Assembly: GCA_002633005.1 (NCBI GenBank)
Contig: NMRA01000038.1
Span: forward strand, 891,329-955,328
Source of the DNA: Phoronis australis
Taxonomy: Eukaryota > Animalia > Phoronida
Direction of reading: 5' to 3'
DNA: 64,000 nucleotides
The first letter of the stretch is position 1. Each line of letters begins with the position of its first letter. The position numbers and the translations under genes are program-made. The notes beneath the pieces were generated by a model, which was not told where the DNA came from, made no database searches, and was given only the letters and a program-made list of their open reading frames with translations. Below, one piece after another: positions 1 to 45,400 of the stretch.

Positions 1-161
1 ACAACACATCACGTTGATTTGACATCTGGCAGCATGGCCACCAGTGAATGCCCTGGACATAAAAAATACATAGACTGATAGACGTGCCAACTGCGGTTTC
101 ATTACTAACAAGCTACTTTACACTAGTTTTCTCTTAGTACGGCTAATGAACACATTATTCT

Positions 162-1407
162 ACAAGAGCAATGCGGAGCGTTGAAATGTGCTGATGAATA
201 CATTGCAAATGGTGTGCTTTTAGAGTTACTTATTTGTATCATAAAAATGGCCATTAGATGGCGCAAAAACATATAATACAATCCAAAAACAGGAACATGC
301 CATATTTCATAAAAGTCTGTCAAGGAACTTCAGAGAAACAAAGGAAAACAGAATAAAATGAAATTGTCACAAGTGGGCAGTGTCCGTTGGATATGCCTGA
401 AAGTCGTCTGTTGTTATCTTCATATAAATACACTTACTAAATTTAGTAAAGATCCTGCAGTGGGTTTAGGAGATTCAACTATGGGAGCAAAACAAAACTA
501 CAACCAGGAGGCGCCACAGTAGTCAGTCACCATCATCAAAGGTCGTCTTCACACTGAGAACATATATGTCAATTTTCAAATGATTTGATTGATACAGGGA
601 GTGGACGCCAAAAACAAGATTTGAAAAAAGCAAAATTTGCCACCAGGTGGTGCAAAATACCTCGATTCCACCCAAAAACAGGAAGATAGCGTCATCACAC
701 CAATAGATGCCTAAATTTAAAATTTTAAGGAAATCTGTTGAGGGCCTTTGAAGACACAGAGTTAAACGTAAAAAACTAAAATTCCCACTAGGGGGCACAG
801 CAGTAGTCAGATCTGTCCAAAAGTCGTCGTCATCCGTAGTCAACATCACATAAATACACTTGTTAAATTAAGTAAAGATCCTGCGAACGGTTTAGGAGAT
901 ACAGCCATAGGCGCAAAAAAACAAAACTGCCCCTAGGAGGCGCCACAGTAGTCGAAATCATCGAAAAATCATCGTCAACCGTCCTCTTCATAGTAAGCAC
1001 ATACACACCAATTTTCACAATCATCCTTTGAGCGGTTTGGTTGATAGAGGGGTGGACGCAAAAAACAGACTCAAAACCAGTAAAAATGGTCACTAGGTGG
1101 CGCAAACTATGTCGAATCCATCCGAAAACGGGAGGATAGCATCATCTCACTAATAGGTGCCTACATACCAAATTTCATGAAAATCCGTCAAGGACATTTG
1201 AAGACACAAAGCGTAAAAAACTAAAATTGCCACTAGGGGGCACACCGGTACTCGGATCCGTCCGAAAGTTCGCTCATGCCGTCCCATTCATGAATGGAAC
1301 ATACATGCCAAATTTCATGAACGTATGTCAAAGGGTTTTGGAGAGCAGTGGATGCTGGACGGAGATGACGGCATAATGCGTTCACATATAAATATGTGGG
1401 CGCATAA
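162..1407 (+). mobile_element. Non-autonomous Helentron/HINE-like element, copy 1, with internal ~150-bp tandem units
   Basis: Starts ACAAGAGCAATGCGGAGCGTTGAAATG, ends in hairpin ATGCGTTCACATATAAATATGTGGGCGCATAA preceded by GGAC/GACG-type short repeats; homologous to 24344-25552 and 42460-43760. Confidence 0.8.
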
Positions 1408-1499
1408 TAATGTTGATTTAATTTCTGATTATGAGCGCCACTGACAACTGATAAGTAAACAGTTGTGCTTCTGGGCACAGTTGATAAAATAAGTCATAC

Positions 1500-1809
1500 C
1501 GTCTACTTGACGCGCTCGTAAAACAGCTATCCTGCCACACTCGTTCTGCCACTTTGTGCCTCAGCACGTGACCACTGTCGGTGTTGCCAAGATCTAAAAA
1601 CCCACTCGCGTAAGCAGCGTTTGGCACGACTTTGATACTCGTCTCCCCTGAGACGTGGGCATCACCAGGAGACGTGGGCGGGGTCAGTGGAATTGGCTGC
1701 ATGCTGAGACCGGGGGTACTGCCATTGTTGGTGCCAAGGCCAGATGATGGTGGACGATCGCTGTCGGAGACCAGCACGAAACAGCTGGGGTAGCGCATCT
1801 TCATACCAG
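1500..1809 (-). CDS. MED13: MED13 exon 7
   Basis: tttcag acceptor, [14 protein letters not shown]...LTPPTSP...KVAERVWQD...SSR, donor GTATGA, phase 1->2. Confidence 0.94.
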
Positions 1810-4800
1810 CTGAAACAAAGCAATTGTGACCAGTGTTTGTCTGTTCAAGCACTTGCTTTTCGCAGACACACCCAAGGCAACAGATTAAGGACGTATAAGC
1901 CAGTTTTGAGCACCACCTCACAAAATTCCGCATATGCTAATGAGAGCACACTTTTAATTTTCAAACAAATAACCCATAAAGTAAACAGTAATGTCAATGA
2001 ATTGCAAGGAATTGTTGATCCACTGTGAAGTTGAGTGGCTTGAAGTTTTTCACTCAATCAAAGTGTCATTGGTTCAGTATTTCTACTTCCACGATACGCA
2101 TATCAATCTCAGTTCACGACCTTGTGGAATTAAAACATGCTAATTGTTTTCATCGTCAACTTTACATGCAACTGAACTGATGGTTCTCTCAACAAGTCGT
2201 GCATTTTTGAATTCCTTATAACCTCCTAGTTCTGGTGGTACCTGTTACTGCCATGTAAGATTAAGTACAGTTTGCAACAGAACAACCCTGCGCTGGCAGT
2301 AAGAGACGAATTGCAAGAAGAGCTGCTAGTCACTTCTTGTGTGTACACCTATGAGTATCAGGTTTCCATAAACGGTTGACACAATGACCTTGATATCTTT
2401 AGAGACAAACAGGTCAACAGCATTGCACATTTTCTTAAAAATCGGGGATGAAAACTGACAAAAATATGCCGTCCTTAAATAATGTTTTGCCCTCCCTCAA
2501 TCTGAGCCTGTGCAGACCAAATGAAAATGCATAAATTTGCTAATGCTTGTATACAGTTATTTAAGTTCAGTCACTTCAGTTCTAATTCTCAAGTCATCAC
2601 TAGATATCCATATATTACACTTCTGATCCACAAGATGTTTTCTTAAAGATGTATTTGCATGCTCCCAACTTTGCTAATGAGTAACAGGAACTAAATGACA
2701 GTACTATTTCAACATAATCTACACTGAAACAAGTCCAGTTGTATTCAGTGATAATTTGTAAAGTGATAACAAAAAAATTTGCAAATAGGTTACCTTTGCA
2801 CTAATTAAGTAGCTCGCAGACTCGCATAGCCCACATCATGCAGTGTTATTCCCCAGCACTATGTCACAGTACTTACTAGACACGGTTCAGTGATTTGCGG
2901 AGGATCATTTTTACCGCAAAACTCGCTAAAAACATTTGGCAATTTTCAACATACGGTGCTTGATATTCACATTGTTGCTATATGCTGCTTCTAACTAATT
3001 TGGCCAAGCAATCACAGAGATAAGTAATTAGCGTGCCAGTTGCACTTTAAAGCCACTTAATACCTGCCTTAGATCACAACAGTTCAAGTTGATAGACCAC
3101 TTACCCACATGAACCACTTACCCACATGAACCACTTACCCACATGAAACTGGTTTCAAATTGTTCCTCAGTCAGATTAGAGATGATTTCTGGGCTCAGAA
3201 CAAACCCTGATGATTCAAATATTGCTCGACAACAGGCTCTACAACTTGGTTACCACTGCGACTCATGAGTCATTTTAAGCCCCAAGCATGGTCTCGAGCA
3301 ACAATGAACAGCCACCTTTTTCCAAGTTCAGAAACCACTTCTCGGCCGAGTTTGGAATAGGATGAGATAGCAGCAAGTAGTCTAAATGAAAAGTTTCTTT
3401 GATGGAGCGCCGCTTGAAGAAACAAAAAAAACCCTGATAGAGATAATGTGAACACACAGCACACTTACAGACTATAACTTCAACACAAGGAGGGACTTGT
3501 GATTCGTCACCCGGCTTGCAATCACAGTCTATTGGATAAAACTGCTTCCAGTCCTCCATGATTCGTCGACTAGCTGGGTCGTTCTCTTGACACGTCTGCC
3601 CAGTCAACACGCCAGCCAACCCGTACGGCGCCAGCACAACTGAAAACAATGCGACTGGATATTAACCGCTACAAGTCATGCGTAACGTAACACCACAGAA
3701 AAGAGGGACAAATTGGAGAAAAAAAAATTAGAAATGTCAAAATCAGTCATATTCTAATGTACAGTAGATATAGACTTTATTCACCAACCTGGGAATAACT
3801 TGCATCATACTAAGTTCGTCAAAGGTAATACTGACAGTGCTCTTGTCAAGCAAACAACTCCATGTATGTATACTTTCCAACTGGAGGTTATTTATTTCCA
3901 ATTTAAGAATGACAAAGACTCAATATATGAGTGAAGACATAATCTCAACCCAGCAAACATTTTAGTGATAGAAACGCACAGTAACCTGTCGGGTGAATAT
4001 TTGACAAAGGAAGCCAAACTCACGTTTTCTATTCTGCAACATGATTTCATAGAAAAGGACAATGCATAGCTCAAAAACAAACACAAATGGTAGCACCATC
4101 AAGATTTTTCTCTTTCATCACATCACCCTGCATCAGCTGCGAATGACATCCCACCCACCAGCAATGCGAATTTACACAAGCGAATTTACACAAGCGAGAA
4201 ACTTGAGAAATCTGTTTTGTCAGTTCAGTTAAAACTGAACACACAGACACCCATCTGCAGAGCACTTGGCCTTGAATCAACAAGATCAACAAGTGTGCCG
4301 ATCTTAACACATGGCTTTCTCGTCACCAGAACACTGGGTCAGACGCCAAGCTTTTTCACCAAAAATATTAGATAAACCAACATCTCCGGAGAAGACACTA
4401 GCCTGTGACAGATACTGAATGAGTTGCATTTAGAAGCAGCTCATTTTACACAAACGAGATAACATAACAAAATTCTGTTATTTTTTTGGTTCAACTCATG
4501 TGTGAGTGTAACAAGAGCCTTACACCACCTAAGCAGAGCCTCCCCATGAAACTTGATAGCAAGCACACCAGAGGCCAATGGCATTGGAGGTGGATGAGCC
4601 TCTCCACACCAGAGGCCAATGGCATTGGAGGTGGATGAGCCTCTCCACACCAGAGGCCAATGGCATTGGAGGTGGATGAGCCTCTCCACACCAGTCTCCA
4701 CACCAGAGGCCAATGGCATTGGAGATGGATGAGGAATGGATTACAGATACTATTATACGCCGCCCGCCGCCCAACTTTACACAAACAAGCTACCAGCTTG

Positions 4801-7800
4801 GATGAAAAATAGTACCAGAAAATAAGTCTGCACAGGTAACTATATCGTCTACATCTAATGCCTTCTAAACTTCTGACTGGCAAATATACGTTTATGGTAA
4901 AATGTCACCGATTCTGAGCAAAAACAATCGCCATAGTTGCGTAATCAAGGGCTTCTTGCATTGCTGAGAAAGTGGCCTAACGGTAGCTAGGGCCCAGAGC
5001 TTGAATGTGGTAAAGCATCAATTTAGGGCTATGTACCTTTTTTGAAAAAAGGGGAAATAAAACATCACTTACTTGCAATGTTGTACCCTAAACTGGTGAG
5101 CTACTATCATATACACTACACAAGAAAATGAGTGGCAGGAGCTATTGTATACATATGAATAAATTTCCATTTGTATTTTGACTAGTAGTATTGCCTGAAA
5201 CTTTTTTACTTTCGCATACCGAGAGTCACCGGCATTACAAGCTTTGCAGAGAATGCATTCAGACTTCTCTTGGCATGCACAAGGCCCTCCCTCTCCAAAG
5301 GGGAAATGTGCCTGTGCCTTCTGAGAGGACAATTTCTCACTTGTGGAGAGAATCTCCCCCCCCAATTGCCACCTCCCCATTGGCAGTGCCTCAAGTACCC
5401 AACATTCTGCAGAAGTAATTCTAACCTTGAGAGGATTTTTTAACTATTGGAGGGGAACTTTTGGGAATGGTAAGGATAATTTCGCGTGATTTTTAAATAT
5501 TTTATACTACAGGGGAATGGCCAATGTTCGGCCACAAAATCTAGGCATCAAGGTCATGTCCCTTGATGGCAAATACCTTAATAATTCCGAACCGCAGTTA
5601 ATCTGCATCAATACACAATTTTGCCACCGACTAATTACTTGAAAGCAAGCCGACTATTAATCGTCCAGACACAGAATTAGAGCCAGACAAATGGACATTT
5701 AATTAGCCCAGCAAATAAAGACCACTGAAATCACTTCAAGATCTCGACTAGGGACGAGGCAGGCAAAACTATCAGTCGACATGGCTAATACTGAGATAAT
5801 GCTTTGCGGTTTGTAAAACCAGGATGCAGTCGAAAACCCGAGGCTAGTAGTTAAAACGAACACGGTCAGCAGGCACATTGCGTCACATAAGTAGACAGAT
5901 TGAGGACTGAGATAATACAGTGTTGTCCTGTCACTCAAATTTGTCCACTGCAAGGCTAGCTAAATACGGTGTACGTGGCAAGCACACAGCATGGTCTATA
6001 CCAAGACGCACCAGTTTCTCGCAGGTAAAGGACACGGCCATATACTAGTATGCCACCTACCTGGAAGGCTGGAACCATTGCTGGAGGCAAGCTGTAGGTG
6101 ACGTGGCATTAGTCGTCTCAGCGGCGGATGCTGACGGACATCAATACTGGCGCACACAGTGCTCTCTCCATGCAGAAAGAATGAAAACGAGATTGACAGG
6201 TGCTGGCTGGAAGAACAAAAAGAGAAACGTGAATGTTGAGCACCATGTGTAAATACATGTAGAGAACACAGTACTGTTTGAAAGTCCCAATGACATGTCT
6301 CGAGGGTGATTCAAGCATGACCCAGAACTTCTCTAACACTTGTTTAGAAGGTTTGAAAGATGGTTCAAGATTTCCAAACATGAATCATTCAAACATGACC
6401 CATAGGTTTTCAAATATTGTATTCGCCCTAATAAGCACTCAGGACACTTTTAGAAAAATTCGTTTCAGGAGGGAGGCGCTTATTATAGCCTAAGGTGATT
6501 GAAACGGGTAAAATCTTAAGCTAGTATTTATCAAATTTACGCTCTGTGATGTATCTGTAACCTATGACAGACTTTGATACAGTTGTGGTGCATTGCTATC
6601 AACCTTTGTTGTTAAATTACGATCATTTTTCAGAAAATTGTGCTGAAATCCCAGGGTGAAAACTCGCCGACTGATGCGTCACTGCCTCGTGATCAATGAT
6701 AGGGCAACTTGAATTCTTGAATAAAAGTAGTTTCGACTCATTAAATTATTTGAAATCCTTAAGTTTTCAAAATAGCGTCACTAAGATTTTAAAGTTCCTG
6801 TGGAGTCGGAATTAACTGCATATAAGTCCAAACGTGCGCTAGATCGTACCCTGCAACACAAGAAAATCTTTGGACGAACACACATGTTGTTGTTATGTGA
6901 TGTTTGTTTTGAAGTCCATCTGCGTCTGAGCAACAAGTGTAGTACACTCCTTGGTGTGAGCGAGCGAGCACCTGCGTGTCATCAGAGTTCATTTGCCAGA
7001 GTAAACGCAATGTAACGATCTAGGTGTGCATTGTAACTGGAAAAATTAACACGAGCAGTAAAGCAGAACGAGTTTTATTCAGCACTTGTTGATCTCATCT
7101 GCTAAAAACGTTTGAGAAATGTCTCGGTGAGTCGCCAGGTGACTGGATGCGCGACAGTCTAACTGTTATTTTCCGGTAGATTCGGGGGGTTTAAGGGTGC
7201 GGATGTGCTGACTATCAGTGGGTTCCTTCGTCTTTAAAAACACCAATTAAGACAGGTATGTAGCGTGCGCTTCCTGGCCATGTGCATTTAATACCGGTCA
7301 AATTTTTGTAGTCCTCAATTCGCAGCTTTTCATGTGTACAAAGAAATTTGGATTCCTGTTGAGGGAGAAGATCTGTACGGGGAAACTTATACAATACAAT
7401 CCCTTTGACAAGTAATGTTCTGAAAGGCCGCACCATAATGGGACACGTTCCTCTCAAGATCAGCAAAACTTTTGCGTTCTTTTTGAAGCACCACGGAAGT
7501 TTGAAGTGTATAGTCACGGCTGAATACCAACAAAGCAGTGAGGCTCGTGGTCTGCAAATTCCGCGCACAGTGATTTTTCAGGACTGCCGGATCTTATTGA
7601 TAAATTGAAGATGGTACTGTAGAATCTAAGAACTTTTAAGTTAAGCATTTTTCGCATGTACACGTTCATGGTCTGGGCGCTCATTTTAGCTAAGTCTGAA
7701 AACGCGTGGGGGGGCTTATAGGGGCATGGGTGCTTATTAGGGCAAATACGGTATAGCTAAAACTTCAAATATGCAGCCCTCTACACAGAAAATTCACAAG

Positions 7801-10800
7801 AAAGAAATTTTGACTTCAATAAATTCCCATTCGAAACCATGAAATTCAAATATAGTTTCTGAAATCGTCACTGTTTTAGAACTCATGACTCATACTCAGT
7901 CGGAATTTTGCTTCTATTTCTCATTTCAACTTGAAAGCAAGCAAGGAAGTTAAAATACTAAAGATTGGGAACATTTTAACCCATCTGATTTTAATTTTTA
8001 TTATCTACACATTCAATTTCTAAGTGAACTCGGAATTCCAAAATCTTAATAGAACTAGAAGTGAAATCCAGTTATGTGCTTTTTCGCTACTGATACTTGT
8101 TTACTCCGTGGATTAGATTGACAGAATAGTGGGGGTAACAAAACGCTGTATTTTCGTAATTCGGAAAATAGGCCAACTTACTGGTTATGAACTGAGGAGT
8201 GCATCAACTACACACAGAGCAGAAATATAATTACACTTAAAATTAAACTTAACTTTCGTTCTAAATTACTCTATAAGCGTCTGTCCTAGAAGTCTGTTTG
8301 CTATCTCTCCTTCATAATGTACCGTAATGTAAAATGGACACATGATGGAACAGTGAGATTCTGCTTAAGGCAAATGCAATCTTTCCTAAAAAAATTGTCT
8401 GTCTTACATTAGAAACATCACGTGCATTGCACGTTAATCTAAGCTTCCTGAAAGGCACACGGACAAGATCAACAAGGGGTACAGCATTACAACTTGTCGA
8501 TCAACGATTTCACCAACATGAACATTAGCGACACTTCTACTGGACGAACCTGCAGCTTTGAGCAAACAATTTTAAGATGTCTGAGCAATTTACAAAGGGT
8601 AAAACCAAAATACGGTGGTCTAAAACACTTGCGGAATTTTTTTACCACCAAGTCACATGCGTGCTCTCTATTTAATTCAATAGCTTGCACTAACCAGGAC
8701 TACATGAAATCAAGTCCAGGTAAGAATCAGGTTCTAGGAAACAATCATCGATCAATGTTCTGGCGAAAATGACTTTCTAAACTCGTTGACCCACTTTATA
8801 ATTGGTCTCAATCACGTTCCTTCCTAACAGAGCATTGCCCTTCAAGACTAGGTATGTACCAAGGCACCGTCACAGCTCAGACTAGGGTGTTGGTTACCGG
8901 AGGCTGCTGCTGATTCCGTCGCCAAGGAAACTGTCGGGGACACTTCTATGACATATTAAACGTCTACAAATTGACCGCACTGACAAACATTTCCTCGCAA
9001 GCTCCCCAGACACTGCATGATGCTGGCATCATAAAGTCACTCGGAAATAACCACATCAGACATCGGTGAAGACTGAATATCAACCATGCCTAAAGGTGAC
9101 TTTTCATCGCGTAAACAAAAACAAACATTGAACTGACGCTTCTCTCAATACCACAACGCCTCCCTCCCGTTTCTGCAGTATTTACCTACAATGCTACACA
9201 TTCATAGGGAACTTGGCCCACAGTTGCACACATACACTGCTGCCAAGCTGTTCACTGTTTAGATTGCCATTAGTCAATCCGATGCCAATGAATTTCACTA
9301 CTGCAGCAGCTCTTGGCCACCGTAGGCAGCATCAACTTGTAACTGTTATAATAATCGTTATCCTCACTGTTATTTCGTGTTATTGTTATCACTATAACCA
9401 TTATCAGCGCAACTTATTTGTTGAAATGTCTGACATGTATAATTGTTTATAGTACCTAATGCAGCAGAATGCCTATATTTGATTACAAGAAACAAATGGA
9501 AGAAATAATCGGTACAGAATTACGTTCTCCGTCACTCTAGCTGCTGTAACGGCAAAATCCTCAAAAACTTATTGATGAGCTGGGAGAATTCAGACTTATT
9601 TTGTCTGAAAGTTTTTTTCATATGTATTGTAAAGTGCCAAGGTAAAAGGCTAATTGGCTCCACATTAATAACACCTTTATCACCACGCAATTAACACTCA
9701 ACAGTGTGATTACACTGTGTCACAAATTCATGACCTTCAACCATTGCATATTAAAAATGAACCGCCTATTACTAGCAGACTAGATGCAGACTCAAATTCA
9801 ACAGCACCAATTTTGAAAATGCGACAAAAAGTAACACCGGTGAACACATTTGAAGCCTAAAGAATGCATATCTGTGGAATCAGCATGAGAATGAAGCCAA
9901 CGATTGCACAAAGTGACGACTCGGCTAGGAAGGAAAGAAACAATAAGTCGAATACCCCCAACAGCCAGATGTAAGACAGTATCCCATTACAACAGGAACT
10001 GGATGAAAAGCTATGGCTCAGTTGTCAAGTAAAACCGATACTCTGGGTTTATGTCATACTATCAAGTTGAAACGATGCATGGTCATAGTACAATATTTGT
10101 TTTGCATGAGAACTAAACAATAAGTCTTAGATGCTCATTAGATATGCTGTAGAAGTCATTGACAGAGAGCCAGACAAACTCATGAGGTGAGAGAGCCTTG
10201 TTTGTGGGCACCGTGGCATTCCGGTTCACATGAAGGTCAGCCTTACTGATACATTGTGTACTGGTGTTGAGATTACTGACTTGAGGCCTGTGCCCGGCTG
10301 CACGACTCAGTACTAAACAGGGACTCCACTATGTTCCTTAATTTTTCACTACATTTCTGGACTTGCACAAGCACTGACTAATCCTTTCTGATGCTGTTTT
10401 GTCTTCATTACTAACCCAGTTTTTAGTCTTGATATACAGTGAGAGTAAACTCTACATTGAATTCTCAATAATATTGAAAGTAAATAGGGACTTCTTTAAT
10501 GCAAAATGGTAAACAGCAGTAAGTGACTGACAGCTGTTCACTGTTCCACGACTATTATCGATTGCCGAGTAAAAAAAAAAAAAAAAAAAATAAATTACGT
10601 AAAAAAATAAAACATATAAAAAACAAAAATGAAAAAGATTCATACCTTCTGTCCCGCGATGACGACGTGCTCTTCTCGAACGGCTGGACAAACCACTTGC
10701 CAATTCGAACAAAGTTTTTGGTGAGAAGACATCTGAAAAAGAGGCAAGATGAAAACGAGTCAAGAGGATGAGGGCATTATGCACAAACTTATGTACAAGT

Positions 10801-13800
10801 GGGCGCATAAAAAGGAAATGACCCAATCTTCAACAAAACACTAAATTGCAGGCTATATAATCTTTAAAAACGTTTTGGTGCAAAAAAACTCACTAGTAGA
10901 TTTTTATAAAAAAGAGCTAGAATAGCAATCCCTACAGCCCAAGTGGAGATTCGTGCAAATTTGATTTATTCTAGCACAAATTAGCACTGCATGTGGCCTT
11001 AAATAATCTGAGCAGCAAAAAAGATATCACACGATTATCCACTTCGTGAAGTCCACTAGCATTTCGTCCAATACCATACCTTTCTATTAGGTTGTGCAGA
11101 GCTTTAAAGAGCAGTGTGCGACACTCGTAAGACAGACCGCAGTCCCACGACCCATGATCAGCTTCTGAAAAAGCGATAATTGACAAACATTACAGCACTG
11201 CACAAAACTAGATGTGTAACACCATAGCAACAAGCAAAACAAACAACACAAGAAACCATGTCAATACAATAATATCAACAGTTATATCAATAACAACAAA
11301 TTATAACAACACCCCCATTTACAACTTTAAAAACAATAACACCAAATGAAACAACAATTAGAATACTAAATAGTTTTCATTACACCTAGAGCTTAAAAAA
11401 TCCAAAAATAGTCTACATAGGAAAAGTCCCTTCATTCAATAAAGTCCAATCAATAACATTAGTTTCAATATCCTGCTTCATCTCTCATATTACTGTTTCA
11501 GGCAATCCACTCACAGATAACAAAATGTTCTAAACAACCTGAACATAATCTCAGAACTGACCCCATAACAGATTTTGCTAATTGGTAATGGGCTATCACA
11601 GTTATGTACCCATCTCTACCAGGCGATTGACCCTGGCACGAGACAATCCTGGCCAACATAGCTCCCTAATCTACTTATCACTTGCTCGACCTGACATCAG
11701 ACATATACCTAAGTATCGTTTGTCATAATATAAAATCAATACGTGGATCGAAGGGCAGTCTGTGAAAGCCTTCCAAATGTCTAGAAGACGTCTCTGAGAA
11801 GTTAATTAGGACGACTGTTCCTAGAAATTCACACTTGCCTTTGCAGGTGCTATTCAACCTCTTGTTCATAAGTGGCCATATCTTTGCCACGACCGTAGAC
11901 AGCGTGAAATTTCACGCGCAATTGTTCTTTCCACCATAGTTTTTCCATGCCATCCATCACACCAAGATGACAAATTAAGCGAAAAGAACTGGAGGAAAGC
12001 CTTTTACTGTTTTCACACAAGGAACAGTTGTCACAGCGCGACTTGCTCCACGCAAGCGCATCGAAAGATGATCCCTTTTCGCCCTGCCCCTGTTGTGTTT
12101 AGACATGTACTCGACACTGGGGCAACAGATCCGAATGCTACTCTAACTCTCAAACCGGAGTCAAAAATGGCCACGGCGACGTCAACTTGCTCCGTGTCGA
12201 TCATGTTTACACAAACTTGCGTCCAATCAGCTGTTCCGCATTATTTGCTCCGTGACAGTTGTCTCCCATGTAATCGTTTTTGATAGGCTGCCGGTGACTC
12301 GGAAACAATCCAACGGAACTGGGAAGGAAATGTTTAATAACCCAGTTACTCCAGAGGCCAGTCTACGCAAAATCAAGGGAATAGAGGACCATGCAAATCA
12401 AACGCACGGTTTTTTCGAGAAACAATGAAAAGGACAACAACTACAACGACAAAACAACAAGAACCGACTTCTTTTGTTGCAGCAATGTTGTTTTAATGGG
12501 CTGCTATGATGGGATGTCAAGTACAATATATAAGTGAAAACAAATTCTCCAGTTAAATACCACAAACCCACAGGCTCAGTTCAACTGCCTAATATAATGG
12601 GAAACAGCCAGTGTCAGGGCAGGGGTCACTATAACAAGATTCAAAATGAAATGAGAACATTAACCTACCGTGGTTAAAACAAGAAGTCGAATTTTTATCT
12701 ACTAAGCAGCCAAAAATGTAATGGGCTTGCCGTCTACGTTTCATTGGCAACCAAAAAGTGGCAAGAAACGGCAGACGGAAAACATCAGCAAAAATCAATA
12801 ATTACCAGCAAAATAATGCACAACTATTTTTTTTTGGGTCGACTTGCTAGTGCCAAACTTTTAGTTAAGTTCCTACACCAATTTGCCAGGTTTTAAAAGG
12901 TGACAACTAATGCCCCTTTCACACCAAAACTGTCATAACTTTTACAACCGATTTAAAGGTACTAATTCTCAGTCTGAGTACTTCAAAACTGGTTTTAAGT
13001 TAACAGTAGTGCGGTTATAACTGTCTGTGAGAATGGTTTAGCAAGGTGATGTAACTGTTGTAATTCTGTGCGAGTATGTCAGTTGCAAAAGTTAACTCAG
13101 GAGAAAAATGGTGGTCATGGGGACTTTAAAACAGTACAGCAGTCTCTTTACATGTAGTCGACCGTGACTGAAAAGTTCTGAGCCACGTTTGAAAAACTGA
13201 GAAAATAAATCTGATACTAAATATATCCTCCCAAGGATACTATTGTTTCACGAAATGTAGAATACAAATAGGTAAATAAAACAACAAGAATGGATCAACT
13301 GAAAATTTTCGGATATAATAATGTCCTTCGTCAACAGAAACAGAAATAAAGTAAAATCAAACACTATATGACAATTGACATTTAAGATGTGGCGTAATCA
13401 AAATGATACATTGTTGCGAAAAAAAAATTCAACGATATAATTTAAGAGGTTTGTTTAAAATCTCGAGCAAATATTTGAAATAGTGCTGTGCATTTGACTT
13501 TTAAACTTTAATTGTTGTATGCGAAAATAATGTGAATTAACAGAAAGGAAGATTTAGACACAAAAACATGATGTGACATTTGAACCATATTAACATTTTT
13601 GCTCAGGGATTACCCTGTTGTAAAATACAACAGAACAAGACTGCATTGTATAGACAAAAGACTCGAGAGCAGAGCTAAGGTATAGTATGATCACGTGATT
13701 TACTTCTTAAAATGCATGGCGATACCTTGCAATGACTTGAAGCGAAAGCAGTGCCACCTAGTGGGATGAGTGTCCACTTCCTTAACTCAAGGTCGTGGGT

Positions 13801-31800: not shown

Positions 31801-34800
31801 AAGCGCGATACCTGGCTACGTGCTTTTAACGACAAGTTTTTTTATTCGTGAGACAGTCGTCAGCTGAATCGGGCACTTTGAGTACGATTTGCAGTTTTCA
31901 CGTGTAAGCCCTACAAAGTGTCAAAAAGTAGGTGATCCCTGACTAGTTCAGTGTACATTTTTGAAACATATATAGGGCCTACCATAAATACCATAAGTGG
32001 AGAAGTTAAGGCTATAGATTAGAAAAAAGACAGTGCTGACTACTGATATTGAACTCTAGAAATTTGCGTCGAGTTTGGAATTGGTATAGTGGAGAACACT
32101 GGGTATGGTGCCTAGAACTCTGTTTACAAAGCTCAATTTGAAAACCCACAGCTCACCAATGTGACCTCAGATTTTGTTTGGTTATCTGTTAAAATCCCAA
32201 GTGGCCACGAAATCACCACAATTGTGCACACATAATGCACAGGAAGTAAACAAACAGGAGTATAAATTGTTCAGCAAAAACTGGAAGGACTTGATCATGA
32301 TGCACACAGTAGTGTTTCCATCAAGATGCACGCAGTAGTATCTCCAGTACGATGCACGCAGTAGCATTTCCATCACGATGCACGCAGTAGTGTTCCCATC
32401 ACGATGCACGCAGTAGTATCTCCAGTACGATGCACGCAGTAGCGTTTCCATCACGATGCACGCAGTAGCGTTTCCATCACGATGCACGCAGTAGCGTTTC
32501 CATCACGATGCACGCAGTAGCGTTTCCATCACGATGCACGCAGTAGCGTTTCCATCATCTGCTGAAGTAGGCGAGCGTGTAGGGGCAGTTGGGGTTTTTG
32601 ATGGCTCCATCCTGTGCTGCTTGCTAAAAAAGGGAAAACCCCTCTTGGGCATCTTTGGATATCCTGGCGGAAATTTGTTCAGTTCCTCGATGTGCTAATG
32701 TCGCTTTAGACTGTTGCTGTGAAGGTCTGTACTTTCACACCTCCAAATACAGGGTTTCCGTATTTTGGTGAGCTCATTTCCCATTCCGCAATCTTGGAAA
32801 TTTTCCAAGTCGCATTTGGCGTTATGCTAAGCATCAAGCCATGCACCACAAATGGTGACATAGAACAGCCGATGCTGCACAATTATGTGCATAACTAAGG
32901 TTGACATGCAATGAGTTGTCATCTTGGATGTCAATTTCGTCTCAAATTTCAGAGGCACTACAACTTGATTTTGATATGTCGTTTCATGTAAACAAAATGC
33001 CTCAACACCAAACTGGAGCACGACAGAAGCGATCACATTACCCGTGTTTCTACAGCAGTGTACACACGGATGATCATTTACGCTTCATAACTACAATTTG
33101 CCCTCGAGTTCAACATTATAACAGTTATGTCTTCAAGAACCTCCTCAAATGCAATCTAATATACCAAAAACCGTTTTCTCTTTCTCAACACCAACTCCAG
33201 CCAGTTGCAACCCTGGGCATGCTCACTCCACCTTCCTGTCTACGACTTCCATCTTGTTCACGTTTTTGAGTTGTGTGTGTAAATGGACACATGACACTGA
33301 CCATCTCGCACTGGATCAGGTTGTACAGAGTCCAGAGTCAACGTCTAAACAGGGCTTTCGGGACAATTCCGCTAAGAAACCCTTTGTCTGGAGACAACCT
33401 GATCCTAGCCACTGAATGTGAACTGGTTCTTGAAAGCAGTCCACAACTCAAACTCGGAAGTACTATATCTCAATCCAAAATAAAGTGTCTGTAGGCAACA
33501 TTCCACATATTTAAAAGGATTCCAAACCTGGTTTTAGCTTACTAACAGATATTAAAAACAACTTTCCCATCCAGTTCTCTGAAACATAATAATGTTCTGT
33601 AACCACCACCAACCCTCAAAAGTTTGGAGGAAAACTTGGAAACACCTTACAAAGTCTGCTAAACACGCAAGCGGGACCTACGCTTTAGTGAATCACGGGG
33701 CAACTGTGGGGAAAAGACCACCCACCAAGGACCCCCCAAGGACCACAATATCCAATTTGTGACATAGGGAGTACCAGTGTTAGTTGATTCCTGCCTTTAA
33801 CTTGGAAGATTGACACCAATGATGCATTAGCAGGTGACAGAACAGGGATTGGTTGAAATCATCAAATGAGGTTTAGTATCCTTTTAATTCCTTACTGCTA
33901 AAAATCAAGTACCTCGGAAGAAGAAGATTGGCCAGTGCGTATACTTGACCCAAGCATAGTGAGTATTAAGTATCGGAAACAAATAAGACAAGGGATTCCA
34001 TGTTTAATTATATGCTAGAAGTTGCTTAAGGGAAAAATTAATTGGAGTAGTCAGCCAATCAGTGTGGTCTTGACACAAACTCTACAACTTCATTAAAGTA
34101 GGAAGTCAATTCAATCAGTTATTATTCAGTCAATTATTGCAATCATTTGGGTTAATGCCAGGGGGGCACTTAATCTGAAAATTTTAAAAACCAGTGGGTG
34201 GGCATTACATTAGCCATAACAGTTGCTGTGTGTTTCAAAGTTATTTCACTGAGACGCTAATCAAAACAGGCAAGAGTTGGTTACTGACTAGCAAAAGGCA
34301 AGTCTCTTGAATTCTATCAATCCATTAGGGCACATTATCAATGTGATCTTGTGACGATTATTAACACTTAAACCAATTTCAGTGATTAGCCCAAGACATC
34401 AGCTAATCAGACAAGAAGCAGTTTAATAGCTCAGTGACTATGCATCACAAACTGGAACCTATCGCCTGGAGAACTATGCCTTCCTCCTGACATCCGCACA
34501 GTCAAAGATGGATAGTTCTAGAAGCGAATATTGCTGAAATGAGCCGGGCTTGCCGAATGTCACGTGAACAGTGTTCCAGCAGATGTATTGTCGCAAAGGC
34601 ATGGCACAATTCGCCACCAAAAGTATATAGCCAAAGTGGAGCAATTTTTAACTTGGCCTTCAATACACCTCACTTAGGACTGGACTTATGCCAAAACAAT
34701 TGCGAACACTTTAAGAGTGTGATGTGGCCAGCTGGGCTAGAAATTTCCCTGCATTCAGGATGAAACAAAATGGCAGCCCCATGTGCTGCACGTGCCAAGA

Positions 34801-36114
34801 ATACCCTCAATGATTTGAAAACGTTTATGCTGAAATGATATTATGCTTTACTGTGCCCTTCTTACCACTATCGGTGTGTGAAAACTGCATATGTACAACC
34901 CATGGTCAAGTCCAAACTAGTCCCTCAACACAGAAAATTCAGGTCGACTGCGTGTGCAAGTTGACCTTAATGCTATGCTGAAACTAACAACTGCTAAATC
35001 TCAAATTCATTCTACTGATCAACACGTCCTTTGATAACCAGCAAAAACATGTTTTTGCACGGCACCTCGCTTGTTCTATTGTCACAGACACAATACAAAA
35101 GTTTTTAAACATCAACAAATTTAAATTTGTGATAAGTGATTAACACACTTTCATAATATGTTAAACATTGGTTTAAAGTAATAAAAAAATTTCCACAGTG
35201 ACAGTTCACTTTGACTTAACCCTAAAAGTTAGAACCTGAACCCTAAGGATAACAACCCTGGCCGAATTGGACTGATTGACATGATAGAATCACTCTAGTT
35301 TGATTGACAGGTGCATCATCAGACCCCTAGATAAATGGACCTTTTCAATGCTCCTCCATGAGATATGGCACACAATCGTGACCTACCTGAGAGTTCCGAC
35401 GAGATGAGCGAGTCAGAAGGGGCATCTCCATACCAGAATATCCATAATTCTTTCGTGAATGGTGGTGAATTGGGCTTGCTCGATTCATTAGCAAGAACCT
35501 TGCGCCAGACACTCAGGATGTCCGACTGTATGCACTTGACATATGTTGACAGTACGGGGTCATCTGTAGGGTCAATGCATTCTGCATATTCAGATTTAGC
35601 ACGGAGCTTTCGCCATTTGATGCCACTTAAATCCGTCTGCAGAAGGGATGAAACGGTGTTAGGCAATGCACAAATCTGTTGCAAAAAAACTAGTACTCAG
35701 CATCAATAGTAACCTCACGCTGAATGTAAAACGTGTTGATAACATATATCACGGCAATATCACCCCCGCAGGTGGATTGTCCCGTGATCTATCATGCTAT
35801 GACTCGTTAACAACTGGTGAATCGGTAAATTTTGGGAAATTCTACTTCTTACCATCTTACAGGGGCCGCAAATTCTGATACATGGGCTCGGCAAACAAAC
35901 ACCAAATGTCAGTATGTAAATTCCCTGAGCAGTACTAATAGTCATGTAAACGATCCACTCAAAATTAATTTGGGGTCACCTTTTCACCAAAGGACACTTG
36001 ATGAAATCCAAAAAGTCCAATTCCGAGAATCGGAGAATGACTTACCAGTGAGAAGAGATTCGTGTGGCAATCTTCAAGGCTACAGCCATTTCCCGCGGGT
36101 GTTGGGTGACTCAT
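1500..36114 (-). CDS. MED13: Mediator subunit 13 (MED13/skuld), 5' part: coding exons 1-7; gene continues beyond the left edge
   Basis: Spliced translation [23 protein letters not shown]|[10 protein letters not shown]...ELWIFWYGD...|[20 protein letters not shown]|[17 protein letters not shown]...|[19 protein letters not shown]...|[13 protein letters not shown]...WKQFYPI...|[10 protein letters not shown]...LTPPTSP...VAERVWQD matches the Med13 N-terminal domain; all junctions GT-AG with compatible phases. Confidence 0.97.
2647..3046 (+). mobile_element. Non-autonomous TTAA-flanked DNA transposon (Kolobok-like), copy 1
   Basis: TTAA|AGATGTATTTGCATGCT...AGCGTGCCAGTTGCACT|TTAA; AG..CT termini, imperfect TIR; inverted homolog at 44268-44672. 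Confidence 0.7.
3096..3147. repeat. 17-bp tandem repeat x3
   Basis: (ACCACTTACCCACATGA)x3. Confidence 0.9.
3469..3639 (-). CDS. MED13: MED13 exon 6
   Basis: tttcag acceptor, [15 protein letters not shown]...WKQFYPI...CVEVIV, donor GTAAGT, phase 1->1. Confidence 0.95.
4564..4733. repeat. 41-bp minisatellite, ~4 copies
   Basis: (CACACCAGAGGCCAATGGCATTGGAGGTGGATGAGCCTCTC)n. Confidence 0.93.
6061..6206 (-). CDS. MED13: MED13 exon 5
   Basis: ttccag acceptor, [48 protein letters not shown], donor GTAGGT, phase 2->1. Confidence 0.95.
6417..7751 (+). mobile_element. TA-flanked TIR DNA transposon (CCGTA-type termini) carrying a decayed HIRAN-like ORF
   Basis: TA|TTGTATTCGCCCTAATAAGCAC ... GTGCTTATTAGGGCAAATACGG|TA (~22-bp TIR); deleted relative at 31365-31635. 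Confidence 0.78.
7312..7610 (+). pseudogene. Frameshifted HIRAN-domain-like coding remnant
   Basis: [21 protein letters not shown].../[39 protein letters not shown]...GLQIP, resembling the IRGYHVYK..W.P..GE.L...N..D..A...GHVP...GLEIP pattern. Confidence 0.65.
10646..10732 (-). CDS. MED13: MED13 exon 4
   Basis: tttcag acceptor, [28 protein letters not shown](S), donor GTATGA, phase 2->2; absent from the ORF track. Confidence 0.95.
11080..11164 (-). CDS. MED13: MED13 exon 3
   Basis: tttcag acceptor, [28 protein letters not shown](R), donor GTATGG, phase 1->2. Confidence 0.96.
13748..13950 (+). mobile_element. tRNA-derived SINE, copy A
   Basis: Head with A-box-like CCTAGTGG and B-box GGTTCAAGTCC; body homologous to 48686-48875. 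Confidence 0.75.
15517..16360 (+). mobile_element. Diverged or truncated member of the same HINE-like family
   Basis: ACAAGAGCAACGCAGAGC start; AAGATCCTGCAAGAGGTTAAGGAGATAGAGCCGCGGACGCC and GCCACTACATGGCGCC blocks shared with other copies; right boundary approximate. Confidence 0.6.
22005..22555. mobile_element. MITE (PIF/Harbinger-like) with internal 25-bp tandem repeat
   Basis: TIRs GGTCCTTTCATACTAAC / GTCAATATGAAAGGGCC; internal CAGTATGAACG subrepeats; (CGCAGTTAACAGCCCCAGTTAACAT)x3 at 22084-22170; degenerate inverted relative at ~23520-23750. Confidence 0.65.
24344..25552 (+). mobile_element. HINE-like element, copy 2
   Basis: ACAAGAGCAACGCGGAGCATTGAAATGCGCCCACA start; TATGCGATCACATACAAATACGTGGGCGGCATAA end; subterminal inverted repeat ATGCGCCCAC/GTGGGCG(G)CAT. 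Confidence 0.82.
25992..26150. repeat. 14-bp minisatellite, ~11 copies
   Basis: (WTGCTTCGTATGYT)n. Confidence 0.93.
28100..29407. repeat. ~650-bp tandem duplication split by a single N (probable assembly overlap)
   Basis: 28100-28761 repeated at 28763-29407 with the N at 28762 exactly at the junction. Confidence 0.92.
31159..32101. mobile_element. hAT-like non-autonomous element with apparent 6-bp TSD
   Basis: GGTATG|CAGTGCTCTCCAC ... GTGGAGAACACTG|GGTATG; subterminal CGAGTTTGG repeats. Confidence 0.72.
31365..31635 (+). mobile_element. Internally deleted fragment of the 6417-7751 family, nested in the hAT-like element
   Basis: TACCATATTCGCCGTAAG start; shares AGGCGCTTATT...TCAAATTTACGCT.TGTGATGTATCT...CCTATGACA and TTAAAAACACCAATTA blocks. 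Confidence 0.7.
32296..32556. repeat. 26-bp minisatellite, ~10 copies
   Basis: (GATGCACGCAGTAGCGTTTCCATCAC)n with variant units. Confidence 0.93.
35387..35636 (-). CDS. MED13: MED13 exon 2
   Basis: ctgcag acceptor, TDLSGIKW...DDPVL...[11 protein letters not shown]...SELS, donor GTAGGT, phase 0->1. Confidence 0.96.
36046..36114 (-). CDS. MED13: MED13 coding exon 1 ([23 protein letters not shown])
   Basis: 69 nt, ATG at 36114, donor GTAAG; matches conserved NGxSLEDCHxNLFxL. Confidence 0.95.
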
Positions 36115-36393: not shown

Positions 36394-36452
36394 ATGTCCT
36401 TTTACTTGTGGCTTGTGTTCTTTATACTCTTGATACCATGGTTTATATCGAG
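36394..36452 (+). CDS. BLTP2: BLTP2 exon 1 (N-terminal transmembrane anchor)
   Basis: ATG TCC TTT TAC..., hydrophobic 19 aa, donor AG|GTAAGA, phase 2. Confidence 0.88.
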
Positions 36453-42400: not shown

Positions 42401-45400
42401 AGCTTCATCGAAGATTTGTGTAGGAGTAGAAAGGATCACTGAAGAAAGTGAGCGCTTTTTTATGCGCCCACATATTTATATGTGGTCGCATATTGCCGTC
42501 ATCTCTGTCTGGGCGTCCGGCGTCCGCGGCTGTATCTCCTAAACCCTTTGCAGAAACGTATTGAAATTTGGCAGGTGTGTTCCTATGGGGTCTACGACAG
42601 AGGGCGACTAGTTTCGGACCAATCCAAATACCGCTGTGCCCCCTAGTGGCAATTTTATTTTTTTACGTTTGCCTCTGTATCTTCAAAGGTCTTCAACTGA
42701 TTTTCATAAAATTTAGTACATAGGCATCTATTAATGAGTTGCTGGTATCCTCCTGTTTTCGGATTGCTCCGATGGATTTTGCGCCATCTAGTGGCCATTT
42801 TTACTATTTTCGAGCCGTTTTTTGGCATTCGCTCCTCTAACAACCATACCACTCTAAAGATGATTGTGAAAATTGGCATGTATGGTCTTACTATGAAGAA
42901 GACAGTTGACAATGATTTTCTGATGACTTCGACTACTGTGGCGCCACCTAGTGGCAGTTTTGTTTGTTTTTGTGCCCATGGCTGTATCTCCTAAACGCTC
43001 TATAGGATCTTTATTAAATTTAGCAAATGTAATTATATAAAGTCGACAACAGACGAAGACGAGTTTCGGACAGATCGATGTACCTATGTGCCACCTAGTA
43101 GCAATTTTAGTTTTTTACGTTGATCGCTGTATCTTCAAAGGTACTCAGATTTCCACAAAATTTGGCACATAGACATCTATTAGTGAGGTGACGCTAGCCA
43201 TTCATCTTCAGATTGATTCAAGGTTTTTTGCGCCACCTAGTGGCCATTTTTGTTGTTTTTGAGTCTGTTTTGTGGCATTCGTCCCTCTGTCAACCAAACC
43301 ACTCTAAGGATGATTGTGAAAGTTGGCATGTATGTACATTCTATGAAGGGGACGGTTGCGGATGATTTCTGATGACTGTGGTGCCTCCTAGTGGCGGTTT
43401 TGTTTTTTGCACCCATACCTGTATCTCCTAAGCCCTCTGCAGGATCTTTATTAAATTTAGCAGGTGAATTTATATGAAGTTAATAAGAGAAGATGACGAC
43501 TTTTAGACGGATCCGATGAACACTGTGCCCCCTAGTGGCAATTTATTTTGTTTACCTCTGTTTCTCTGAAGTTCCTCGGCAAATTTTAATTAAAGTTGGT
43601 AAATGGCTTTCTTTTAAAGAAACGATGACATTTTTTGGTTTTCATACAGATTCGACGTATTTTGTGCCATCTAGTGGCCATTTTACAAATAAACAACCCT
43701 AAAAGCACACCATTTGCGATGCATTCGTGGGTGCATTTCAACGCTCCGCGTCTCTCTTGTTAAGTAATAGTTTTAAGTGTGGAATATATTTTTGACAAGG
43801 TGAAAATTCCGGATTTGGCCTACTGCCTGTTTAAAATACATGGGACGAAATGCGTACAGAAAGCAATGGGAAGTATTGTCAGTAGCCCCTAACCGGCCAA
43901 CCGAGGGGCTACATGTTGCCTACACCCAGTGGTGCTCGGAAGGGCTCGAACGAGCCTCCCCCATTTGATGAAGTGGGTAAAATGGTCCAACTCAGAGAAA
44001 CGAAAAGTAGGAAATGAGGCAAAAGTCCACTAAAAAAGACGAGAACTATCAAAATTCGGCAAATGCACAATTCATAGTTCTGAACGTACCCCGTGAATCA
44101 TAGTAAAAGTCCACATTCTAAAAAATTCGATCCCCCATTTTTAGGCTGGGTACTGGAAAATAAGTTGGTCATTGGTCTTTAGAGGCATTGGAATAGAAGA
44201 TAATCATTTACATAGGCTGTGCACGCTCATGGTTTTGGTACAGAACTTGAAAATGGCAAAACATTAAAGTGGAACTTGCACGCTAATTCCTTATCTCTGT
44301 GATTGCTTTGCCAAATTAGTTAAAAACACAACATATAGTGACGATTTGATTATAAAACAGATTGAAAATTGTCAAATGTTTTTTAAGAATGAGTTTTGTG
44401 GCAAAAATGATGCGGTGCAAATCACTGAACCTTGTCCAATAAGTATCGTGATGTGGTGCTGGGGAATAACACAGCATGATGCGAACTATGCGAGTCCACA
44501 GGTACATCATTGGTGCAAAGGTCACCTGTTCGCTGAATTTTTTGTTTTCACATTTACAAGTTGTCAGTGAATACAACTGCACTTTGTTTAGCTTAGATTA
44601 TGCTGAAATAGCATTGTCATTTAGTTCCTGCATGCTCTACATTAGCATAGTTAGGAGCATGCAAATACATCTTTAAGTTTGTCCTATTTATCTTTTATGT
44701 GGAAGTGGAAAATAGAATTTCACTTGTCTTCCATCTTGGTGAGATTTTACGTAATGTACAACTAAGGGCGGGAGAAGGGGGGGGGGGTGTGGTCTTACTA
44801 TGATAGTGATTTATACATTTTTTGTTGCTTTTTACAACCTTCACTCTGTTGGAACTAGCGCAGATCTAGAGGAGTCCAGGGGATCCGGGCCCCTTCTCGG
44901 CCGCTTTTCTATTTCTGTAATATTGGAATGTCTTACTGTGTCTGCCCAGGGTCATAATTCTCTCTGGCCACAGTTCTAAATCTGTGCATCTTTGTCCAGT
45001 TTTTCTTCAATTTAGGTGTTAATAATGGTGTGCTATTTTGGAAAATGGAATTTTTATTTTTTACTGATACACACATAAATTTAAATATTCATTTAATTTA
45101 ACGTAACTTAATTTAATCTATCTTAATTTATTTAATTTAATTTATTGCTGGGAGAGGACCATGCTGTATATTAGCCTTTGGCTAAAGCATGTTTTGAAAA
45201 TCTATTGTGTTTTATCTTCTTCTATAAATAAAATTTATTACATTAGTATAAAAATATTTAGCTCAGAAAGCGAACCATTATGTCCAGGAAATTAACTGAA
45301 CTGTCTTCATGCTTAGATTTCAAATGAACTGTTCTTTATTTTATATTTCTAGCAGCTGGATTGTTTATCATTCTCAAGCTCATTTGTGAATAATGAAATC

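Follow-up and report, generated by a model that had tools for sequence, protein, structure and literature searches.

The window, by which we mean the whole 64-kb stretch of DNA that was analysed, carries copies of a high-copy, non-autonomous Helentron of the HINE/DINE-1 type, in which every central repeat of ~144 bp holds one co-oriented CTCF-core word and the repeats are of three types, A, B and C. On balance we think it somewhat probable that the repeat has kept this CTCF-consensus word through predicted binding by the host's CTCF, which would aid the element, and that the arrays are dispersed passively. The features of the window are listed below.

160..1410, minus strand: copy 1, which has diverged most and lies downstream of the MED13 exon near 1500-1816
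250, 366, 500, 639, 784, 929, 1089, 1229, plus strand: the eight motifs of copy 1
1500..36114, minus strand: MED13 host gene, from tblastn with named MED13 proteins, a PDB match and the GT-AG borders of the first exons
36114-36046, 35636-35388, 11165-11079, 10734-10654, 6208-6062, 3646-3467 and about 1816-1500, minus strand: MED13 exons
15515..16360, minus strand: copy 4, decayed and rearranged, in MED13 intron 2
24342..25555, minus strand: copy 2, both ends complete, with an internal deletion of ~80 bp, inside MED13 intron 2
24432, 24567, 24709, 24859, 25004, 25069, 25229, 25361, plus strand: the eight motifs of copy 2
42457..43761: copy 3, complete, running 5' to 3' on the plus strand with motifs that read on the minus strand; ends from contig loose ends
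42462..42492, plus strand: 5' subterminal inverted repeat ATGCGCCCACA, which follows a T run and makes a hairpin with the partial inverted copy beside it
42503..42530, plus strand: short, eroded GTCY-type microsatellite, read directly
43678, 43539, 43395, 43244, 43102, 42955, 42795, 42650 (range 42636..43678), minus strand: starts of the eight CTCF-like motifs of copy 3, types A-B-C-A-B-C-A-B
43726..43753, plus strand: 3' subterminal inverted repeat (43726-43736) and 3' hairpin (43739-43753) of copy 3

The full copies 1, 2 and 3 are 1.2-1.3 kb long and 76-87% identical in pairs. The ends of copy 3, which lies 6.3 kb upstream of the MED13 start, were set by contig loose ends (241/293 contigs at 42457 and 92 at 43761), and the same two element ends terminate hundreds of contigs whose flanks are unrelated. 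Copy 4 has a 3' terminus at 15515, monomer remnants at 15757-16356 and motif-like words at 16205 and 16340, with nhmmer matches of E 2.7e-48 and 8.4e-11; a search for its 5' end found none. Copy 3 has no Rfam match, and Pfam scans of 4, 96 and 73 frames, chosen mostly outside the copies, gave nothing useful.

The hallmarks of HINEs, as described in excerpts of PMC4067079, PMC2374699 and PMC7492417, are subterminal inverted repeats (subTIRs), a 5' inverted partial copy, a GTCY tract, central repeats, a 3' hairpin and a T-rich flank. The subTIR here is an 11-base repeat (11-15 bp in HINEs) that begins 5 nt from the 5' end, and its 3' partner is perfect in copy 2, has 2 mismatches in copy 3 and has eroded in copy 1; 25 nt separate it from the 3' end, compared with the slightly greater 38-60 bp of mite HINEs. 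The partial inverted repeat beside the 5' subTIR folds in all three full copies, and in copy 3 the arms at 42461-42475 and 42478-42492 are 93% complementary, with a DNA fold of -10.5 kcal/mol. The GTCY tract is short and eroded in copies 2 and 3 and shortened in copy 1. The 3' hairpin has a 6-bp stem and a 3-nt loop and lies 8 nt from the end; it is imperfect in every copy of the window, but the family stem is a perfect 6 bp, about 99% of contigs and reads having T and G at 43752-43753, where copy 3 departs. The central tandem repeats comprise eight monomers and are non-coding, the longest stop-to-stop frame over a copy being 114 aa. The flanks are A+T-rich and unrelated, and show no visible target-site duplication, and no empty site was seen; copies 1, 2 and 4 terminate in TGTAG instead of a T run. 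A canonical Helitron, with 5' TC, 3' CTRR and no subTIRs, was rejected, as the element starts with a T run before the subTIR and terminates in CTTGT plus T or AG. The sequence-only reading, which had called the element HINE-like, was thus right as to its type: subTIRs, GTCY tract, central repeats and 3' hairpin are all present.

That reading had also described three full copies with eight motifs each, all on one strand within a copy, and both this arrangement and its eight motif coordinates in copy 3 are borne out, the latter within 1-2 bases. Its pattern matches exactly in 11 of the 24 slots (7/8 in copy 3 and 2/8 in each of copies 1 and 2); nine further slots are off by one base and two by two bases, and two (366 and 24567) have small deletions. 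When one mismatch is allowed, a 14-base pattern occurs 21 times in the window, 17 times inside the three full copies and twice in decayed copy 4, against 0.08 in 100 dinucleotide shuffles. The three variants do cycle, as A-B-C-A-B-C-A-B, and the higher-order repeat put at ~450 bp has a period of 418-452 bp where no deletion intervenes. A zebrafish ChIP matrix gives p<1e-4 in 18/24 slots, as does a fly matrix, which reaches p<1e-5 in 10/24; 21/24 slots reach p<1e-4 with at least one of these two published matrices. The 10-11 matches observed were attained by none of 300 column-permuted matrices, whose maximum was 4-5, and all five window matches to the fly matrix at p<1e-6 fall within copies. 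The arrays claimed earlier are real arrays of the CTCF consensus. These scores belong to a motif chosen post hoc, after inspection of the sequence, and to 24 slots that are not independent; all descend from one ancestral monomer, and the match to CTCF is therefore a single evolutionary event that was amplified.

The strong CTCF positions CC, AG and GGC, seven in all (PMC1904468), are fixed across the monomer types (CC 1-2, AG 6-7, GGC 10-12), and the variable positions are 8, 9 and 13. Type C has A at position 9, found in 0/30 fly sites and 8% of zebrafish sites, and type B has A at position 13, found in 0/30 fly sites. The upstream second motif of vertebrates is absent from the 35 bp upstream of the 24 slots, where the best scores are 6.4 of 16.2 and 2.1 of 15.3 bits. 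Annelids and molluscs possess CTCF (PMC10658182, PMC7854359), and the placement of the host near them among lophotrochozoans, based on MED13, suggests that it would have CTCF as well. A paired-motif pattern had no match in viral contigs or in prokaryote genomes, and its nine metagenome-contig loci resemble the element only in the word itself; they were scored without a scrambled-word control and hence do not point to enrichment. A longer type-A/B word was absent from the viral contigs, and a 22-mer of the 5' module from the prokaryote genomes. A 17-base end word occurs at 12 viral loci, which we attribute to chance; no profile match accompanies them.

A nucleosome wraps 147 bp of DNA. The slots are 116-160 bp apart with a median of 144 bp, apart from one 65 bp gap that results from the deletion in copy 2. 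Monomers of oyster HINEs measure 138-181 bp in excerpts of PMC7492417, which places 144 bp within the normal range, and according to a preprint fly CTCF alone does not phase nucleosomes. No helical phase exists between the motifs (Rayleigh p 0.89 and 1.0), and the copies have no consistent 10-11 bp AA/TT period. The arrays described earlier as phased are therefore regularly spaced but not in helical phase, and the idea that they form a nucleosome-phasing cassette is not supported, as the median is below 147 bp, the spacing is ordinary for a HINE and helical phase is lacking.

Comparison of the monomer types gives 76% identity in the 14-base motif and 49% in the rest of the repeat, and one majority base is common to all three types in 11/14 motif columns against 50/130 others (p=0.008), figures that lean in favour of the motif because the monomers were cut and aligned around it. 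The earlier claim that the motif is better kept than its spacers holds in this comparison and for copy 1 against copies 2 and 3 (p=0.010 and 0.004), but not significantly for copy 2 against copy 3, where 14/111 motif positions differ versus 147/871 others (p=0.28). An AAAA tract just upstream of the motif is nearly as well kept, as is a second box, which is 67% identical between types and has 17% mismatches in copy 3 versus 14% for the motif. A tendency of between-type differences to fall at bases tolerated by CTCF is borderline with the zebrafish matrix (p=0.057) and is not seen with the fly matrix (p=0.43). In copy 3 the departures at 42946 and 43100 are private, reads showing the family with the type word, and in four slots GGCGC has become GGTGC, as CpG decay would give. 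The 21 copy-private changes cost about as much as random ones (p about 0.4, with the low power of three copies) and thus give no sign, at that power, of purifying selection on the sites after insertion; constraint would have acted on the element lineage rather than on these insertions. In the 3.37 million characters of oyster HINE arrays searched, six exact 12-base CTCF words did not occur once, while the second box occurred at least 271+352 times, so that the word is no general requirement of HINEs.

Several other origins of the word have to be weighed against this record. A CTCF-like word could have stood by chance in the founding monomer; tandem duplication would then have multiplied it, unequal exchange or conversion would have kept its copies alike, and selection would have played no part at any level. 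Such a course agrees with the single origin, the motif-anchored alignment, the neutral private changes and the similarity in this respect of copies 2 and 3; we consider it quite unlikely all the same, given that the contrast between word and spacers appears both between types and in copy 1, and that conversion would not be expected to leave a single 20-base block intact in three contexts. It is also possible, though unlikely, that the word is a signal of the element itself (a site for Rep/helicase or another factor, or a single-stranded hairpin in the rolling-circle intermediate) which resembles the CTCF site by chance. The word is conserved along with other boxes of the monomer and is a near-palindrome around CTAG, in which 82% of cells pair and the stem is 5 bp; type A also carries AAAATGGC, which resembles what we take to be a YY1 site, but this is confined to type A. 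Of 21 distinct sequences, 11 have lost one pair of the stem, each with its 5' side intact, and the covariation of the hairpin does not exceed that of shuffles, 97/500 of which reach the observed value. The bases of the word do not fit the consensus of a Pol III A-box. DINE-1 central repeats are described as non-homologous between species in excerpts of PMC2374699, and together with the lack of the word in oyster arrays this makes it unlikely that the transposase needs it; the Rep/helicase site offered as an alternative by the sequence-only reading is weakened accordingly, it being the second box that is common to the oyster arrays.

The orientation of the copies raises the further question of whether the family now serves the host as a portable insulator or boundary, with insertions retained for their CTCF arrays in a preferred gene orientation. 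The motifs of all four copies face the MED13 promoter, with copies 2 and 3 as a convergent pair around it, and family RNA is 27-31 times commoner from one strand, the three MED13-intronic copies being in that orientation. Bound CTCF sites have been spread by transposons in lamprey and zebrafish (excerpts of PMC5504073 and PMC7182764). We nevertheless regard co-option as very unlikely: the private changes are unfiltered, the shared direction of four copies amounts to p=1/16 only, protostomes lack convergent-site bias and loop anchoring according to part of a 2026 preprint (10.64898/2026.10.19.760054), in the annelid Dimorphilus most active CTCF motifs occur singly and at promoters, and T-rich target preference or RNA-level selection can also yield an orientation bias. 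Poly(A) signals were rejected as the main cause of the RNA strand bias; AATAAA occurs 1-4 times on the motif strand and 0-1 times on the opposite one, but a 14-fold bias is present already at the end by which these transcripts would come in. An internal promoter is unlikely as the sole cause, because many RNA reads run past both ends into unrelated flanking sequence (5' end, 709 and 674; 3' end, 457) and showed no conspicuous start site. The Pfam frame scans found no exon of a plus-strand gene beyond 36 kb, and A/T skew, the sole indication, suggests a transcription unit over copy 3.

The reading that we prefer, in which the word serves the element through host CTCF, would involve the following. 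The CTCF-consensus word would have been kept through the long divergence of the three monomer types, and its predicted binding by host CTCF would probably benefit the element itself, most plausibly by forming a nucleosome-poor, silencing-resistant patch of 1 kb, because a nucleosome cannot fit between two occupied sites 144 bp apart. Rolling-circle copying, with mobilisation in trans by a presumed and unseen Rep/helicase partner, would disperse the arrays passively in sets of eight sites; once inserted, most copies would erode without selection and the host might occasionally co-opt one. A more ambitious proposal, which we find doubtful, is that the element acquired its cassette of eight CTCF sites as a means of protecting itself and went on to be the chief source of such sites in a lophotrochozoan genome. 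Its copies within genes would lie almost exclusively with motifs toward the promoter, either through ssDNA insertion into the exposed strand of transcribed DNA or through harm to transcription by opposite arrays. If true, the branch that invokes harm by CTCF would mean that the effect of CTCF depends on orientation in an invertebrate, a kind of animal not known to show this.

Few data on CTCF exist for spiralians (PMC10658182), and the present family may bear on what the protein does outside vertebrates. In this 64 kb with four copies, 10 of the 14 best fly-matrix matches come from the full copies, or 11 counting decayed copy 4, and genome-wide motif scans in the host would therefore be dominated by one transposon. 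Such scans could mislead analyses of boundaries, or they could offer a large natural experiment in the form of many polymorphic, oriented, eight-site CTCF-motif insertions in which any effect on chromatin and transcription could be measured.

A literature search, with Dfam/Repbase and preprint supplements outside its scope, returned nothing on the present family or on HINEs whose central repeats hold CTCF arrays. Helitron-borne clusters of factor sites and transposon-borne CTCF sites were each known separately, and a HINE with arrays of CTCF motifs, as predicted here, appears to be new. Cg_HINE of the Pacific oyster, in excerpts of PMC7492417, PMC4067079 and PMC2374699, is alike in its subTIRs, the partial inverted repeat at the 5' end, the GTCY tract and the 3' hairpin, and may be alike in its T-rich flank; excerpts of PMC7492417 also show central monomers of 140-180 bp in fixed orientation and the CCAAATTTC box in the oyster arrays, whereas the present element has a higher-order repeat of three monomers with one CTCF-consensus word in each. 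DNA transposons likewise multiply CTCF motifs in vertebrates, namely hAT-Tip100 in lamprey (PMC5504073) and TDR13B and others in zebrafish (PMC7182764), where, in excerpts of both, the sites are confirmed by ChIP while ours are predicted from sequence; the two family tables therein have no Helitron/Helentron label, and those excerpts do not describe co-oriented arrays of eight sites. Clustered sites in tandem repeats, one of them borne by a mobile element, also occur in the CTCF/BORIS-bound human repeats and the SVA VNTR, which, in excerpts of PMC5007689, differ in being a retrotransposon or simple repeats of a mammal, SVA being bound mainly by BORIS. The PATC 'mechanical insulators' of C. elegans, in part of a preprint (bioRxiv 10.64898/2026.08.08.743475), are similar as intronic Helitron tandem repeats proposed to protect against silencing, but act via a 10-bp A/T periodicity without a protein motif, whereas the present copies carry a protein motif and no such period. 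Parallels in delivery are the Caenorhabditis Helitrons with clustered heat-shock elements (excerpts of PMC6927752), in which rolling-circle elements bring clusters of host-factor sites, and the DINE-1-like elements that supply clusters of MSL sites in Drosophila miranda, as stated in part of PMC4067079. Binding and an effect on genes were shown for HSF-1 and MSL in those cases, whereas the factor here is CTCF-like as judged from the DNA alone, and the element described here would extend the list of host factors whose site clusters travel on rolling-circle elements.

Self-comparison of the window revealed three long related segments, with pairwise identities of 76%, 77% and 87% when aligned, and a profile of the element located a fourth, decayed copy. 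The earlier, sequence-only reading had claimed eight co-oriented motifs per full copy, and this was borne out, as each of the three has eight slots for a CTCF-like motif, all on one strand. There is one slot per monomer of the central repeat; the monomers are of three types in the order A-B-C-A-B-C-A-B, and the spacing has a median of 144 bp. The copies lie around the host gene MED13 as follows.

36114 to ~1500, minus strand: exons of MED13
~160-1410: copy 1, directly downstream of the last MED13 exon found
15515-16360: copy 4, decayed, placed by the profile of the element; MED13 intron 2
24342-25555: copy 2, MED13 intron 2
42457-43761: copy 3, 6.3 kb upstream of MED13

By every structural test run, the element is a HINE. 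Read on the HINE strand, which is opposite to the motifs, each copy opens with a T-rich end, next to which stand an 11-base subterminal repeat and its partial inverted copy; then come a short tract of GTCY type, the array of central repeats, a second subterminal repeat and, 8 bases before the 3′ end, a small hairpin that is made perfect by two bases carried in ~99% of contigs and reads. The T-rich end, subterminal repeats, partial inverted copy, GTCY tract, central repeats and hairpin are all DINE-1/HINE features listed in the available parts of published descriptions (PMC4067079, PMC2374699, PMC7492417). One sample, which may be where the window comes from, has two runs of public DNA contigs, and 19,588 and 30,888 of these were placed on copy 3 at 85% identity. 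The placed contigs break into unrelated A+T-rich flanks at 42457 (241 and 293 breaks) and at 43761 (92, first run), and these shared breakpoints fix the element ends and identify the family as high-copy. The HINE-strand 3′ terminus is TGTAG in copies 1, 2 and 4 (at 160, 24342 and 15515), while in copy 3 and in most reads T comes next; the TGTAG-ending copies may form a subfamily whose 3′ terminus differs.

The pattern first proposed for the motif does not hold exactly in every slot: 11 of the 24 match it, nine have one mismatch, two have two and two have small deletions. Allowing up to one mismatch, its 14-base version occurs 21 times in the window versus 0.08 times in shuffles (17 in the three copies, two in copy 4 and two elsewhere). 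The suggested resemblance to the CTCF consensus proved significant, since a zebrafish ChIP-seq matrix (PMC7182764 Data S1) and a fly matrix (PMC1904468 Table S2) each give p<1e-4 in 18 of 24 slots across the three copies. At least one of the two does so in 21 of 24, the fly matrix reaches p<1e-5 in 10 of 24, all five of its window hits at p<1e-6 fall inside the copies, and 300 column permutations of each matrix never reached the observed 10-11 hits. The positions that are strong in flies as well as in vertebrates (CC, AG and GGC; PMC1904468) are fixed in all three monomer types. Against reading the slots as CTCF sites, however, is the fact that all 24 share one ancestor and are thus not separate matches to the matrices. 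Also against it, position 9 is A in type C and position 13 is A in type B, both 0/30 in the fly matrix, and the upstream motif of vertebrate CTCF sites is absent at the slots.

The expected conservation of motif over spacer was found in part. Between monomer types, motif identity is 76% versus 49% in other columns, and 11 of 14 motif columns keep one majority base across types versus 50 of 130 others (p=0.008), in an alignment constructed around the motif. Copy 1 differs from copies 3 and 2 at 15-16% of motif positions versus 27% elsewhere (p=0.004, 0.010), but between copies 2 and 3 the values are 13% and 17% (p=0.28). A second box of the monomer is almost as conserved as the motif; it occurs 271 + 352 times in oyster HINE arrays, and six exact 12-base CTCF words occur nowhere in 3.37 million characters of these arrays, with cells covered to 400 characters. 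Differences between types come out as mild with the zebrafish matrix (p=0.057), not with the fly matrix (p=0.43), and the damage from 21 copy-private changes, counted in 22 deletion-free slots, equals that of random changes with both; four of these changes are C-to-T, as expected at methylated CpG. The overall pattern fits a lineage that was constrained while it transposed and whose copies then decayed neutrally. Covariation lends no support to reading the near-palindromic word as a hairpin, and 11 of 21 sequences disrupt one of its pairs.

The proposal of a nucleosome-phasing cassette fared poorly. A nucleosome wraps 147 bp, therefore none fits between two occupied neighbouring sites, and a CTCF-bound array would be nucleosome-poor rather than phased. 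The motif spacings share no helical phase and the copies have no consistent 10-11 bp A-tract period. The 144-bp spacing needs no special cause, because oyster HINE monomers are given as 138-181 bp (PMC7492417). According to the accessible portion of a 2026 preprint (10.64898/2026.10.19.760054), fly CTCF sites have flat nucleosome profiles and protostomes lack a convergent-site bias.

The family RNA is markedly one-sided. Over copy 3 (42444-43775), two RNA runs that share the species label, all RNA runs being from one study, have 31 and 27 times as many reads from one strand as from the other; single bins of the first run range from 14- to 62-fold, and the ratio is 0.7 and 0.9 in the flanking repeats. 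Low-depth reads over MED13 exons 1-2 have the first mate opposite to the RNA, and the family RNA is therefore the HINE 5′-to-3′, T-rich strand. The inverted copy 2 (24001-26001 examined) shows the mirror image. Because hundreds of reads run past the element ends into unrelated sequence, read-through at many loci contributes to the signal. Copy 1 directly follows the last exon found and so lies in a later MED13 intron; the three copies inside MED13 have the orientation of the family RNA. Copy 3 would share it if a divergent transcript, of which no exon was found there, underlies the A/T skew beyond 36 kb. The strand asymmetry could stem from a preference for T-rich targets, from insertion as a single strand into transcribed DNA, from selection at the RNA level or from CTCF effects that depend on orientation, and among the points left over it is the one that lends itself best to testing. 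At 10735-10816 (minus), directly upstream of the MED13 exon 4 splice acceptor and oriented as the intronic copies, lies an isolated HINE-like 5′ end with T run, subTIR and partial inverted copy (weak profile match, E 0.001); the acceptor may draw its branch point or pyrimidine tract from it.

MED13 exon 1 shares 18-20 of 23 residues with molluscan and annelid proteins versus 14 of 23 with Priapulus and Limulus, and for exons 2-5 Owenia is best or equal-best among six named MED13 proteins compared; this similarity can be read as that of a lophotrochozoan host. Molluscs and annelids are reported to have CTCF orthologues, and the annelid Dimorphilus has the CTCF motif as the most frequent one in its open chromatin, for the most part singly and at promoters, in the excerpts available (PMC10658182, PMC7854359).

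A paired-motif scan of metagenome contigs, made with no control scan, returned nine loci without homology to the HINE family beyond the word; several are tandem repeats of 33, 38, 131, 146 and 158 bp around it. Both mirror arms of a foldback-like element (L006:1-308 and 773-1244) consist of 158-bp tandem units with one strong CTCF-like word in each, and L005:1790-2484 and L008:671-890 are minisatellites of 38 bp and 33 bp made largely of the word. Looking up the sequence of the element itself returned nothing. The window also holds a tRNA-derived SINE-like repeat (13748-14001, minus; 48690-48924, plus), in the head of which a three-base difference at 13751-13765 creates a perfect CTCF-like word, and short self-complementary MITE-like segments (45555-45756, 54801-54990, 61761-61888). 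Several broken frames of 100-208 aa at 38656-40287 (plus), multi-copy in DNA contigs and with no Pfam match, look like a decayed DNA-transposon gene. A 95% identical direct duplication (28100-28761 and 28763-29407) flanks the window's single N at 28762 and is likely an assembly artefact.

The feature is real: the central repeat of this HINE family has a higher-order structure and a long-retained CTCF-consensus word, for which any insulator role would be putative. The literature search, which did not extend to repeat databases or preprint supplements, turned up no description of CTCF arrays within the central repeats of HINEs. As far as the available sections of these sources go, transposon-spread CTCF sites are ChIP-confirmed in lamprey and zebrafish (PMC5504073, PMC7182764, PMC9341505), clustered sites in human tandem repeats are bound by CTCF and BORIS (PMC5007689), a role as motif-free insulators is proposed for minisatellites of Helitrons (10.64898/2026.08.08.743475), and motif enrichment at boundaries is the sole addition of PMC10013865 and PMC13652810. 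Likewise in partial view, Caenorhabditis Helitrons bring in heat-shock elements as clusters (PMC6927752) and DINE-1-like elements supply MSL sites (PMC4067079). The HINE family described here would work in the manner of these Helitron-borne clusters of factor sites in worms and flies.
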